A DNA stretch of 14,854 bases from a virus. The DNA lies in the UHGV virus genome UHGV-0122456; one strand, written 5' to 3'. Positions within the stretch are counted from its first letter, which is position 1; each line of letters starts with the position of its first letter. Positions 2,527-6,716 of the stretch are shown in pieces. The notes beneath the pieces are model-generated. The model was not told the origin of the DNA and made no database searches. It saw nothing but the letters and a program-made list of their open reading frames with translations. A program made the translations under genes and the position numbers.

Positions 2527-3555
2527 ATGACCATCAGAAAACAGCCGAACGGAAAATGGTTGTGTGAGTGCTATCCCAATGGACGCAATGGCAAGCGCGT
2601 GCGTAAGCAATTTGCCACGAAAGGCGAAGCCATTGCGTTTGAAAGCTTCACAATGGAAGAAGTGAATAAAAAACCGTGGTTGGGTGAAAAGGATGATCGG
2701 CGACGCCTATCAGAGTTAATTGAGCTTTGGTATTCCCTGTATGGTCAGACACTCGCAGACCCCAAGCGCCTCATGGCGAAACTTAGAATTATCTGTAATG
2801 GTCTAGGCGACCCCATCGCCTCAGAACTGACAGCCGGAGACTTTACGAAATACCGCGAAGCACGGTTAAAAGGTGACCTTCGTAACGAAGACGGCACACT
2901 AATGTCGCCAGTAAAACCACGCACGGTGAATCTTGAGCAACGTAACCTATCATCGGTTTTCGGCACATTGAAAAAACTAGGCCACTGGTCAGCACCAAAT
3001 CCTCTCGTCGGGCTGCCAACATTTAAAATCGCTGAGGGTGAACTAGCATTCCTGACCCCGGAAGAAATTAAACGCCTACTGGATGCCTGTGCTGATTCTC
3101 AGAGTCCCAGTCTGTTGATGATTGCAAAAATATGCCTAGCAACTGGTGCCCGATGGAGTGAAGCAGAAAACCTGCAAGGGCATCAGTTATCAAAATATCG
3201 CATTACTTATACCAAGACCAAAGGTAAAAAAAACCGAACCGTTCCAATATCTCAAGAACTGTATGACGAACTACCTAAAAACAGGGGGAGATTATTTACC
3301 CCATGCAGAAAATCCTTTGAGCGTGCAGTAAAGCGAGCCGGTATCGAACTGCCAGAGGGCCAGTGCACCCACGTACTGCGCCATACATTCGCCAGCCATT
3401 TTATGATGAACGGCGGAAATATACTGGTACTGCGCGATATTCTGGGCCATGCTGATATAAAAATGACGATGGTTTACGCTCACTTTGCCCCTGATCACTT
3501 GGAAGATGCTGTAACAAAAAATCCACTTTACAAATTAGACTGGAAAAAAGCATGA
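2527..3555 (+). CDS. int: Tyrosine integrase (P2/186 Int family)
   Basis: 342 aa. C-terminal catalytic region TGARWSEA ... HVLRHTFASHFMMNGGNILVLRDILGH ... MVYAHFAP with Arg, His-x-x-Arg and Tyr closely resembles P2 Int. Lies next to the att core. Confidence 0.95.
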   Translation: MTIRKQPNGKWLCECYPNGRNGKRVRKQFATKGEAIAFESFTMEEVNKKPWLGEKDDRRRLSELIELWYSLYGQTLADPKRLMAKLRIICNGLGDPIASELTAGDFTKYREARLKGDLRNEDGTLMSPVKPRTVNLEQRNLSSVFGTLKKLGHWSAPNPLVGLPTFKIAEGELAFLTPEEIKRLLDACADSQSPSLLMIAKICLATGARWSEAENLQGHQLSKYRITYTKTKGKKNRTVPISQELYDELPKNRGRLFTPCRKSFERAVKRAGIELPEGQCTHVLRHTFASHFMMNGGNILVLRDILGHADIKMTMVYAHFAPDHLEDAVTKNPLYKLDWKKA

Positions 3556-4535
3556 CCCTTTATTCATCAATTGGCATTATGTTCTATGTTGTAATGTTAA
3601 TATACATATTGTATTTAACATATAAATACAAGTGGTATTTATTAAATGAACAAAACCTTATAAAACAGAAATTATTCTGGTTATCAATCGGAATACCAGT
3701 ATTATCATTCTTTTATTTTGGGATTTTCGCATGGTGGGGCAAGGTCCCGGTGTTAAGTGCCCACGGCTATACTCGCTTTTACGAAATCAGTAAATTCCCT
3801 CTAATGCTGCTAGCCAGTTCAGTACCTCTTGGAGCTATAGTTAAGAATATTCACAGGACCATTCAAACAGAGACGCAGCTTTCAAGGACAGAGCATCAAA
3901 TAGAGCTGGTAAAAGCAAAAAATAAATCTGATTCATTTTATGCCCACCAGAAGAGTTATGCCGATATTTTTAAAACTGTCCCTTCATTTATCGTTAGTAG
4001 AGAGTTTACCGAACACGATGATGGAAAAAAATATATAGAACCTTCCATTTCTCACCCTTATATTCTTTACATGAATATTTTTACAAAATCCTCTATTGAA
4101 GAAGGCTATAGCAAAGAAATAAGTTCATTATTTATGGGTAGAGTTCAAGATTATTATAAGAATATCAACAAAGCTATTAAAAGCTGTTACAACAAAGAGA
4201 CTTCTTATGATATCCAAGTGATTTCCCTTCAAATGCTCGAAATCAATATTATCCAACTTTGCAGAGAATTAGGGATCGACTATCGATATGAAAAACATGA
4301 GTTTATTCTTTTTGACTCCATTGAAGAAAAACCCTTCACCACTTCTTTCTCTGATGAAAAACAAATAAAGCAAATGGTCACTGGATTGCGCGAGCTGTTA
4401 GTTCATGTTTATATGCTGATTGGCTTAAGCCCTGAGGTCTTCCAAACGCCAAAAGGGCTATGGGACTTTATCCCTGACTATGGCAATGATTGCTCTAAGC
4501 TCTACCCAGCAATTCTACCTGCTGATAGGAATTAG
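3552..4535 (+). CDS. AT-rich cargo gene: membrane protein of unknown function (327 aa)
   Basis: ATG at 3552 overlaps the int stop as ATGA. Two to three N-terminal hydrophobic helices (about residues 7-24, 41-62, 82-97) followed by a roughly 230-aa K/E/Y/S-rich soluble domain. DNA is much more AT-rich than the flanking phage genes. No family recognised. Confidence 0.75.
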   Translation: MTLYSSIGIMFYVVMLIYILYLTYKYKWYLLNEQNLIKQKLFWLSIGIPVLSFFYFGIFAWWGKVPVLSAHGYTRFYEISKFPLMLLASSVPLGAIVKNIHRTIQTETQLSRTEHQIELVKAKNKSDSFYAHQKSYADIFKTVPSFIVSREFTEHDDGKKYIEPSISHPYILYMNIFTKSSIEEGYSKEISSLFMGRVQDYYKNINKAIKSCYNKETSYDIQVISLQMLEINIIQLCRELGIDYRYEKHEFILFDSIEEKPFTTSFSDEKQIKQMVTGLRELLVHVYMLIGLSPEVFQTPKGLWDFIPDYGNDCSKLYPAILPADRN

Positions 4536-4651
4536 CAATGGCGACAACTTGGCGGCAGAGCATTAAAAATGTGTAAAACCGACAAAAACAAAATAACACT
4601 AACGTACTGTTTTAAAACATAAATATATGTTTTTATTATAGTCAAAATGGT

Positions 4652-4696
4652 ATGTAGGAATTTCGGACGCGGGTTCAACTCCCGCCAGCTCCACCA
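4652..4696 (+). other. attP core: about 45-bp copy of the 3' end of the tmRNA gene ssrA (tRNA-like T-arm and acceptor CCA end); not a complete RNA gene
   Basis: ATGTAGGAATTTCGGACGCGGGTTCAACTCCCGCCAGCTCCACCA matches the 3' terminus of enterobacterial ssrA as I remember it. No ssrA 5' portion lies upstream; upstream is AT-rich phage DNA. Confidence 0.8.
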
Positions 4697-4706
4697 AATA
4701 AAACAA

Positions 4707-4739
4707 GGGGTTACGTGAAAGCGTAGCCCCTTTTTCTTT
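4707..4739 (+). terminator. Rho-independent terminator just 3' of the att core
   Basis: Stem GGGGTTACG (4707-4715) pairs with CGTAGCCCC (4722-4730), 9 bp with one G-U, loop TGAAAG, then TTTTTCTTT. An A-rich tract upstream makes it potentially bidirectional. Confidence 0.6.
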
Positions 4740-4819
4740 GGTAGTGGCGGCAAAATGGCGACAGGCTTTTGCGTCTTTCTTGCCTGTCGCCCTCTTGAAA
4801 TCATGCAAAGAGGTTTCAC

Positions 4820-5302
4820 ATGGAAGAACTTCACTTTGTTTACATCAATGCAAATGGTCGTATCGGAGTTCACTCAATACAGAGCATCAGTTATAGCGAA
4901 AATCATATACAGGGCATTTGTAAGAACACCGATCGAATAAAAACCTTCCGAAAAGACCGCATTCTTAAACAGTACGATTCACCAGAACAAGCCATTCAGG
5001 AATGCGCGTCATTCCTCCCCGAAAACTACTCACATCTCACTAAGCAGTCTGGTCCGAAAAAAAATACATTCGATGTGTGTTTCACCGGATTTAAGAAAGC
5101 AGATAAAGAAAGATTGGTTGATAAGGCGAATGAACAAGGATTAACGGTAAGAACCTCTGTAACCCAAAGCCTTCAGATGCTCTGTTGCGGTTACAATGCT
5201 GGCCCATCAAAAGTATCGGCAGCCAGGATGAAAGGCACAATCATCATAGATGAGCCTGGCTTTATACATTTTCTTGAAACGGGTGAGATCCCAGATGAAT
5301 AA
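4820..5302 (+). CDS. Small cargo protein with C-terminal BRCT-like domain (160 aa)
   Basis: RBS AAGAGG 7 nt before the ATG. C-terminal about 80 aa (DVCFTGF...RLV...GLTV..SV...L.CCGYNAGPSKVSAARMKGTIIIDEPGFIHFL) follows the pattern of the LigA C-terminal BRCT domain. N-terminal 60-aa domain unassigned. Confidence 0.7.
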   Translation: MEELHFVYINANGRIGVHSIQSISYSENHIQGICKNTDRIKTFRKDRILKQYDSPEQAIQECASFLPENYSHLTKQSGPKKNTFDVCFTGFKKADKERLVDKANEQGLTVRTSVTQSLQMLCCGYNAGPSKVSAARMKGTIIIDEPGFIHFLETGEIPDE

Positions 5303-5330
5303 AAACCTGCCGTAGCAGGTTCTCTTTCTC
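5303..5330. terminator. Bidirectional terminator between the convergent BRCT-like gene and ogr
   Basis: Hairpin ACCTGC-CGTA-GCAGGT (5305-5320), flanked by AAAAA upstream and TCTCTTTCTC downstream. Confidence 0.5.
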
Positions 5331-5547
5331 AAAAATTCATATGCCCCTGACCACCTGGCAATGGATGTGGAGGAGCAGTAGCAATCAGTGCGGGTGTCAC
5401 AATAAACCTGACCACTGTTTCATGGGTAACAAAAGTGCTCCCGCAGTTAATATTTTGGCACTGGCAGTAACGCTCTTTGGTGCTTTCAGTTACTTGAAAA
5501 CTGCTCCTTGTGTGTGCCGCATGACCACACTTTGGACAATTCATCAT
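5329..5547 (-). CDS. ogr: Ogr/B-type zinc-finger late-gene transcriptional activator
   Basis: MMNCPKCGHAAHTRSSF...YCQCQNINCGSTF has the Cys4 motif and about 72-aa length of P2 Ogr. I start it at the internal Met (5547 or 5544), not the 87-aa ORF start at 5592. Confidence 0.85.
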   Translation of the reverse strand: MMNCPKCGHAAHTRSSFQVTESTKERYCQCQNINCGSTFVTHETVVRFIVTPALIATAPPHPLPGGQGHMNF

Positions 5548-5615
5548 ATCCAGATCCCTACCTTTGCTATCAGAATCATTGTAATGATACACATAATATC
5601 AATATTGAGAACACT

Positions 5616-6716
5616 TTATTCCATTTCAAGATCATCAATCTTCACTTCGAGTTCAATACTGGTTGTAAAACCGTTATCCGGGCTGACGGTATGTGTCAGA
5701 GTCGTAATGGTCCATTCCGCATCATCTATCGGCTGTTTAAAACCACTGACTTTCACTGGCATTTCCGTGTAGAGATCTGCCCGACCTTCCGCCAGTTGTA
5801 GCGAGAATGACGCAACGCCGCGTTGCAGGCGTTCCCACTGCATTTTCGCCGCTCGTTCGGCGTTGCTCCGGTTGGCATAAGTGCGATTAAGTACCAGCAC
5901 GTTTTCATCCGTACCCACCAGGTAATCGCCCTGCTTCGCTTCCGTCTCTTTCTTCTGCTTCTTAGTCCTGCGCTTACGCTTCACCGTGGTGCTTTCTTTC
6001 TTCGAGGGTTCGCGAGTATGCAACCAGCTGGCAATTACGCCCGTGTAAGCTCCGCGATCTGCCAGGGTAAAGCGGTGACTGTCGCCGTCCTTACGTGTGA
6101 TAGTGATCACCGGTAGTGGTTTACCGCTGGCGCTTTTACCCTGTCCCTGTCGGATGAATAACAGATTGCCATTTTTCACCGACGCAATAGCACCGTACTG
6201 GCGCGCCAACCGCATCAGAAAACTGCCGTCACTCTCATTGGTCTGGTCTATATGTTCCACGGGTTTATCTGACAGGTCTTTACCCAATGTCATCTTCAGT
6301 TTGTGCCGCGCAGCTATTTCCTTCACCACTTCCCCAACGGTGGTCTTGTGCCACGACTTTTCACGGCGGGTATTCAGCGTTTCACGAAAATCAGCACTTC
6401 GCGCCCGGATAGTCAGGCGGTCCGGTGCGCCAGTGTGTTCAATCTCGTCCACCGTGAATGTCCCTTTCGGGAAAAGCGGCTGCCCCTTCCAGCCCAGCGC
6501 CAGCGTAATGACCGCACCACGGCGCGGCAGCACGATTTTTCCGTCGGCGTCGTCCAGCTCCAGATCAAGCTGGTCCGCGTCAAAGCCCCGATTGTCCGTC
6601 AACGTCAGACTCATCAGACGGTTATCCAGCACAGTAGTGATATCCCTGCCCTCAATACTGATGCTGAATGCGGGAGTTTTGTTGCCTTTGTTAAGCAGTT
6701 CAGAGCTGAAATTCAC
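5616..6716 (-). CDS. D: Tail protein D (late control gene D family)
   Basis: 366 aa, in the P2 gpD position between U and ogr. 4-bp overlap with U. Confidence 0.85.
   Translation of the reverse strand: MNFSSELLNKGNKTPAFSISIEGRDITTVLDNRLMSLTLTDNRGFDADQLDLELDDADGKIVLPRRGAVITLALGWKGQPLFPKGTFTVDEIEHTGAPDRLTIRARSADFRETLNTRREKSWHKTTVGEVVKEIAARHKLKMTLGKDLSDKPVEHIDQTNESDGSFLMRLARQYGAIASVKNGNLLFIRQGQGKSASGKPLPVITITRKDGDSHRFTLADRGAYTGVIASWLHTREPSKKESTTVKRKRRTKKQKKETEAKQGDYLVGTDENVLVLNRTYANRSNAERAAKMQWERLQRGVASFSLQLAEGRADLYTEMPVKVSGFKQPIDDAEWTITTLTHTVSPDNGFTTSIELEVKIDDLEME

Follow-up and report, generated by a model that had tools for sequence, protein, structure and literature searches.

An ssrA-directed attP with probable 186/Fels-2-type integrase arm sites in a P2-family phage genome

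The DNA analysed here (the window) is a stretch of 14,854 nucleotides from the virus genome UHGV-0122456, in which the genes and the attachment region run in the order apl, cI, int, cargo, attP, orf160, ogr, D. On the plus strand lie int (2527-3555), a cargo ORF of 984 bp encoding 327 aa (3552-4535), whose start overlaps the int stop in an ATGA, and orf160 (4820-5302). The minus strand carries apl (1531-1773), ogr (5329-5592) and D (5616-6716), and cI occupies 1893-2525. The int product is a heterobivalent tyrosine integrase that matches the Pfam families Int_N and Phage_integrase and has a 186-type N-terminal arm-binding segment (W11, E14, Y16). Escherichia phage Cartapus (Peduoviridae, Elveevirus) shows 95% identity to the window outside the cargo, and the regulatory type of the phage is that of 186/Fels-2.

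Downstream of the cargo, a block of 47 bp on the plus strand (4652-4698) is identical to the 3' end of the host ssrA (tmRNA) gene, and Rfam aligns positions 4649-4696 to the tmRNA 3' end. The limits of this core were set on both sides by identity with the host ssrA and with the host flank at prophage junctions, and its size agrees with that of the annotated Fels-2 attP (24+23 bp). As is characteristic of cores that target tRNA or tmRNA genes, the block is the 3' end of the target gene, which is regenerated on integration. ARAGORN found no whole tmRNA or tRNA gene in the window and Rfam gave the 3' end only, so that the block represents an attP (or a displaced fragment), and the reading as an attL was ruled out. 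Just past the core, a terminator scan detected a phage-borne intrinsic terminator on the plus strand (about 4705-4738; fold of -19.8 kcal/mol, z = -4.4), which would stop the cI-int-cargo transcript in the attP form and the ssrA transcript once the phage is integrated. In phage 186, a terminator is annotated in the corresponding position, likewise directly after the RNA-gene fragment.

The core is flanked by short repeats that a first-pass annotation of this DNA had described as two motifs and candidate integrase arm sites. Reading the sequence from 4200 to 5100 and running a repeat finder over 4400-4950 recovered every string it had named, each in its place: the 10-mer AATGGCGACA at 4537-4546 and again at 4754-4763, and TGGCGGCA at 4550-4557 and again at 4745-4752. 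The repeat finder resolved both into a single 8-bp family, TGGCGRCA, with four plus-strand copies that start at 4539, 4550, 4745 and 4756 (start-to-start distances of 11, 195 and 11). The copies form two tandem pairs with a period of 11 bp, or one helical turn. The int-side pair, 95 bp to the left of the core, consists of site 1 (TGGCGACA, 4539-4546) and, 11 bp on, site 2 (TGGCGGCA, 4550-4557). The ogr-side pair, 46 bp to the right of the core, consists of site 1 (TGGCGGCA, 4745-4752) and, again 11 bp on, site 2 (TGGCGACA, 4756-4763), separated by a near-invariant AAA spacer. Conservation across the four sites does not extend to the two additional A's of the 10-mer. Moreover, the swapped order of the two motif versions on the two sides of the core, which had been pointed out at first pass, carries no meaning; the R position varies freely at all four sites in relatives, and the A/G order was dropped as a signal. 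The pairs themselves stand far above background: with 0.03 occurrences of TGGCGRCA-N3-TGGCGRCA expected in the window, two are present, a number that none of 200 shuffles reached, and the four copies of TGGCGRCA in 4537-4819 compare with a mean of 0.014 and a maximum of one in 5000 shuffles.

Both pairs are conserved at fixed positions in related attP regions; a lack of such conservation, which the first-pass annotation had listed as a refuting outcome, was not observed. The int-side pair is present in Cartapus, Yersinia phage MLG42, the Salmonella phages SEN8 and Fels-2 and two Klebsiella prophages, the ogr-side pair is found as well in those of these relatives that are in attP form, and BLAST homology to these phages starts within a few bases of 4537. 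Among the 29 unique left arms from all fetched loci, T1 and C7 of the site are kept in 29/29 and A8 in 28/29, these being the positions that the pattern used to select left arms does not constrain, while the R position, the 3-bp spacer and all sequence upstream of the first site are variable. The int-side pair always starts 132 bp before the core sequence GGGTTCAAC, and the period is 11 bp everywhere. For the right arms, IMG/VR loci were selected on the core plus terminator only, which yielded 90 unique sequences; in 69 of these, TGGCGRCA-AAA-TGGCGRCA stands at one fixed offset, beyond which the sequences diverge into many unrelated modules. A further 20 carry a P2-type pair at that position, and the remaining one is degenerate. 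Specificity was judged with a strict 8-mer pair pattern, which gave zero off-target matches on both strands of 0.5 Mb of loci; a looser 5-mer pair pattern (GGCGR..GGCGR) was discarded, as it also matched coding DNA off target. Several IMG/VR contigs with a near-identical int, L011, L029, L033, L043 and L044 among them, break off shortly before the arm sites; it seems that automated calling of prophage ends removes the attachment site and, in some cases, the end of the cargo.

Judged by its sequence, the motif is the 186/Fels-2-type integrase arm-binding site that has already been described. According to Nilsson et al. (2011, PMC3448106), P2 and 186 have two or more direct arm repeats to either side of the core, and P2-like phages are of two types, with the repeat tgTGGaCa in the P2 type and tgccGCCActt in the 186 type. 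When reverse-complemented, the 186-type consensus reads aagTGGCggca, which corresponds to the window motif. TGGCGR is present in all four window sites and A-R precedes the T in three of them, and site positions 7-8 read CA, as in the published ggca, as opposed to T-R in 186. The other hallmarks of a 186-type attP are found too, namely, two direct sites per side, conserved phasing and position, and an integrase with a 186-type N terminus.

Comparison with the arms of 186 and Fels-2 revealed arm pairs of 11-bp period in both. Phage 186 (Eganvirus) shares with the window the motif core TGGCGR and the 11-bp pairs. Its record lists predicted arm sites YAYCGCCAYTY (reverse complement, RARTGGCGRTR), of which the ogr side has three and the int side two, and also annotates IHF footprints and five Apl sites. 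Read in the int-forward direction, both sides carry a TGGCGAT-N4-TGGCGGT pair, the int-side one immediately beyond orf69; orf69 itself sits between int and attP, as does the cargo in the window. The stretch from the int-side arm to the core holds accessory sites in 186 and candidate ones in the window. The two differ in the core, which is derived from tRNA-Ile in 186 and from the ssrA 3' end in the window, and at site positions 7-8, which are T-A/G in 186 and CA in the window. Closer still are Fels-2, SopE-phi and SEN8 (Felsduovirus), which Nilsson et al. (2011, PMC3448106) placed in the 186-type arm group and which have the 47-bp ssrA core, the terminator and both arm pairs at the offsets seen in the window. 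In Fels-2 and SEN8, however, the first arm site follows the int stop after 5 bp, where the window has 984 bp of cargo, and the third ogr-side site is a direct copy followed by ogr, whereas that of the window is inverted and followed by orf160.

P2 shows the same architecture with another motif. Its annotated Int arm footprints comprise, in each arm, two direct TGTCCACA-like sites 11 bp apart in the orientation seen in the window, and sites for a recombination directionality factor (RDF) of the Cox/Apl type lie between its int-side arm and core, where the window has candidate Apl boxes. Unlike in the window, the arm motif is TGTGGACA (TGTCCACA when read int-forward), the Int residues are Y11/D14/R16, the core is a 27-bp sequence outside RNA genes, and the int-side arm overlaps the int 3' end. 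The attP of lambda, with its arm sites P1, P2 and P'1-3, the IHF H sites and the Xis X sites, shares the logic of heterobivalent integrases (PMC7498355); the sequence, number and arrangement of its arm sites are unrelated to those of the window, and the likeness is one of general logic for which we claim no homology.

Arm type was also compared with residues of the integrase N-terminal domain, which would bind the arm sites. In an alignment with the integrases of 186, P2 and Fels-2, the window Int is 56% identical to that of 186 and 92% identical to that of Fels-2, and residues 11/14/16 are W/E/Y in both the window and 186 and Y/D/R in P2. These three residues were proposed as discriminating in 2011 (Nilsson et al., PMC3448106). 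In a sample of 80 IMG/VR loci picked by Int homology alone, 45 of the 59 E14/Y16 integrases have a TGGCGRCA-type pair downstream of int, and at most of the other loci the contig ends before attP, so that these are no counter-examples; two longer contigs (L012 and L040) do not have the pair. D14/R16 integrases are accompanied by P2-type TCCAC-N6-TCCAC (TCCAC..TGTCCAC) pairs, such as GATCCACATTTTGTCCAC, in 12 of 15 cases, and where ssrA is present, the core is the same and so is its distance from the pair. In one group of IMG/VR loci (L052-L063), P2-type pairs (GATCCACATTTTGTCCAC) are found about 130-180 bp or about 1.1 kb past the int stop; the D14/R16 integrases of this group are 67-72% identical to the window Int, act on the same ssrA core and retain W11. 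Residues 14 and 16 split the arm types perfectly (37 versus 14 unique N termini, n = 51), which residue 11 fails to do. In this data set, only two of the three residues proposed in 2011 appear to track arm type. At two loci, L060 and L107 (IMGVR_UViG_2937357040_000004), we observed a P2-type int-side arm and an ssrA core followed directly by the phage terminator and a 186-type pair. These probably represent two P2-family elements in tandem at one ssrA and, alternatively, may possibly be hybrid att sites.

The 186-type consensus, the Int N-terminal residues and the fixed positions in relatives support the proposal made at first pass that the repeats serve as integrase arm sites. With both arms around one core, the region is an attP, and we estimate at roughly 90% the probability that 4537-4800 is the attP of a temperate P2-family phage (186/Fels-2-like, Elveevirus-like) that targets the ssrA 3' end, with the TGGCGRCA copies as Int arm sites. 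In this scenario, the N-terminal domain of Int would bind the arm sites while its core-binding and catalytic domains take the core, and DNA bends between the arms and the core would let one Int bridge both, giving the integrative intasome. IHF, joined by Apl in excision, would bend the arms, and Int would exchange strands at a position that presumably lies inside 4652-4698. During excision, Apl would act at 10-bp-phased TAAAAC-like boxes within 4564-4599. This logic of N-domain and arm, bend and core bridging is established knowledge, cited in PMC7498355 and PMC3448106. Its bridging mechanism is carried over to the window from lambda and P2 biochemistry, and the binding of Int, IHF and Apl at the window sites is likewise inferred.

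The ogr-side arm holds a further element. The perfect 10-bp inverted repeat noted at first pass is present, as GGCGACAGGC (4757-4766) and GCCTGTCGCC (4782-4791), and appears in 0.8% of right-arm shuffles. Its right half contains a third, inverted arm-like site on the minus strand (4784-4791; GGGCGACA, 7/8). In the window, 4784-4791 reads TGTCGCCC, where nearly all close relatives have a perfect TGTCGCCA; the single change falls on the outermost position of the site. The ogr (B) side of 186 is laid out in the same way, with an inverted third copy that forms an inverted repeat with the second site, although the gap before the third site is 9 bp there and 20 bp in the window. The inverted repeat is most readily understood as arm site 2 followed by a third arm-like site in inverted orientation. 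A third site accompanies the 186-type pair in 40 of the 69 right arms, as a direct copy in 26 and as an inverted one in 14; the other 29 lack it, and the copy in the window is imperfect, so that it may go unused. The inverted third site might also let Int regulate the neighboring moron orf160.

Alternatively, the inverted repeat could form an RNA or DNA hairpin, acting as a transcription barrier that shields attP or as an operator or leader element of orf160, rather than as a third Int site. The predicted hairpin is stable, with -21.9 kcal/mol (z = -2.7) on the plus strand and -23.4 kcal/mol (z = -4.1) on the minus strand, where AUUUUG follows. The orf160 start is 29 bp further downstream, and the inverted repeat is confined to the arm class carrying orf160, so it could belong to an orf160 module. 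We nevertheless consider this explanation unlikely. Of the two halves, one is exactly an arm site and the other exactly such a site in reverse complement, the perfect TGTCGCCA occurs in close relatives, 186 has an inverted third arm site amid unrelated flanking sequence, and the direct third copy of other relatives is unable to form a hairpin. In addition, the loop is 15 nt long and the plus strand has no U-tract after the stem. An intrinsic terminator at the inverted repeat on the plus strand was rejected for the same lack of a U-tract, and the terminator scan gave only the one at 4705-4732. The hairpin and third-arm-site readings are not mutually exclusive. As for orf160 itself, which lies between the ogr-side arm and ogr, its product matches phrog_2561 ("DNA ligase") and shows weak matches to BRCT and to the C terminus of the PADLOC candidate PDC-S48. 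Since quite different modules follow other arms, its position looks like a second accessory-gene slot.

The left arm, between the int-side pair and the core, contains candidate sites for the accessory proteins. Four TAAAAC-like blocks on the plus strand within 4564-4599 (TAAAAA at 4564-4569, TAAAAC at 4574-4579, AAAAAC at 4584-4589 and TAACAC at 4594-4599) recur with a 10-bp period and are conserved in the 29 unique left arms, although their A+T richness limits the statistical weight of this observation. Beside the apl start, in the lysis-lysogeny switch, GTTTAC/GTTTTA/GTTTTA boxes at 1801-1825 have the same 10-bp period in the opposite orientation and are conserved across relatives with different cI operators. 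Because the box is repeated in inverted form beside apl, and because the Apl boxes of 186 likewise occur at both places in opposite orientation, we take the arm blocks and the 1801-1825 boxes as candidate Apl (excisionase) operators; the boxes themselves differ, being TTGGCAA in 186 and TAAAAC-like in the window. Between apl and cI, we also observed a direct repeat, TTCAATATTTGATAC / TCCAATATTTGATAC (1831-1845 and 1861-1875, 30 bp apart), as candidate CI operators. The repeats found there in relatives are unrelated to it, which points to different immunity types.

Next to the candidate Apl boxes lies a candidate IHF-like site on the minus strand (4600-4612, TAACGTACTGTTT), which matches 7 of the 9 specified positions of YAANNNNTTGATW and sits where the 186 IHF footprint falls on the int-side arm. 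A second IHF-like element, at 4620-4632, likewise scores 7/9, the consensus tested being WATCAANNNNTTR with an A/T-rich flank. Relatives from both the 186-type and the P2-type arm groups have 8-9/9 matches at offsets -71 and -51. The 8-4-8 palindrome reported in the first-pass annotation, AAAACATA-AATA-TATGTTTT, is indeed present at 4614-4633, where it overlaps the second IHF-like element and a TAAAAC copy at 4613-4618, but it is not conserved as a dyad in 29 relatives. A dedicated dyad operator for a dimeric protein would account for its perfect symmetry over 8 bp, of which MLG42 keeps 7/8, and for its location where accessory-factor sites are expected. This seems improbable. The inner half-site positions are unconserved in the 29 relatives, in which only AAAC, GTTT and TGTTTTT columns are kept, and there is no dyad at this position in Cartapus, SEN8 or Fels-2; a similarly good 8-bp palindrome arises in 3.6% of shuffles of this left arm (77% A+T), which makes it marginal. 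Column conservation and shuffles rule out a conserved dyad, and what is conserved here are IHF-like and T-tract elements, which fit two IHF-like half-consensus matches 20 bp apart; the palindrome can best be regarded as a side effect of A/T-rich elements.

The TGGCGRCA pairs might also be bound by another linked phage protein, either the Apl excisionase or CI at a distal flanking operator comparable to FL/FR of 186. RDFs do bind direct repeats one helical turn apart (PMC7498355), and with int, cI, apl and attP linked, the co-variation with Int residues is not fully independent of the other linked proteins. Yet TGGCGRCA is absent from the apl-cI switch region of the window, where Apl and CI must bind and where the repeats are of other kinds (GTTTTA boxes and TYCAATATTTGATAC). 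E14/Y16 loci with at least five different cI-operator types retain one arm motif, 186 has TTGGCAA Apl boxes and nevertheless the arm motif of the window, and RDF sites occur on one arm only, while the TGGCGRCA pairs occur on both, like the footprinted P2 Int sites. This dissociation of the arm motif from immunity and Apl type argues against a binder other than Int, which we regard as very improbable. Finally, short GC-rich words are common in the coding DNA of this phage and five more single TGGCGRCA copies lie elsewhere in the window, but an origin of the repeats by chance or hitch-hiking, devoid of function, is negligible, given the pair statistics, the fixed positions across divergent relatives with a sharp drop of conservation just outside the sites, and the takeover of the same positions by another motif when Int residues 14 and 16 change.

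The cargo gene ends at the boundary of the arm, as had been noted: its TAG occupies 4533-4535, and the first motif begins 1-2 bp on (4537). The cargo protein matches only phrog_17460 (function unknown), and searches against Pfam and PADLOC gave no match. In relatives, the interval from int to the arm ranges from 5 bp to about 2.7 kb; the insert encodes a RES-domain protein in Cartapus, is lacking in Fels-2, SEN8 and MLG42, and measures 1.0-2.7 kb in IMG/VR loci. The last Int residues were seen to vary with the insert. The slot between int and the first arm site is described as a minor hotspot of P2-like phages (PMC13586616). The 984-bp cargo of the window lies inside the mobile unit, in a known int-att hotspot, co-transcribed with cI-int and ending at the first arm site.

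The literature and the 186 GenBank record already contain the arm consensus, the ssrA core of Fels-2 and SopE-phi, and the arrangement of two plus two sites with a third. The finding is therefore real but ordinary, with a small discovery value, and useful mainly as annotation, setting the functional limits of the attP at about 4537-4791. Two modest points appear to be new: E14/Y16 versus D14/R16 as a perfect discriminator without W11, and the presence of both arm types on one ssrA core. These points open the way for a tentative hypothesis, which on the sequences compared we hold as possible rather than likely. In this scenario, ssrA-directed P2-family phages would carry two interchangeable arm-recognition "alleles," E14/Y16 with TGGCGRCA and D14/R16 with TGTCCAC. 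Both share the 47-bp core and often the terminator too, and their integrases are about 70% identical. If true, three separated elements, the Int N terminus and both arms, would be swapped together. Furthermore, if two residues in a beta-strand of the N-terminal domain do set arm specificity, with W11 irrelevant, they would constitute a compact natural specificity code, and E14/Y16 versus D14/R16 provides a clean natural data set for engineering orthogonal integrase/attP pairs.
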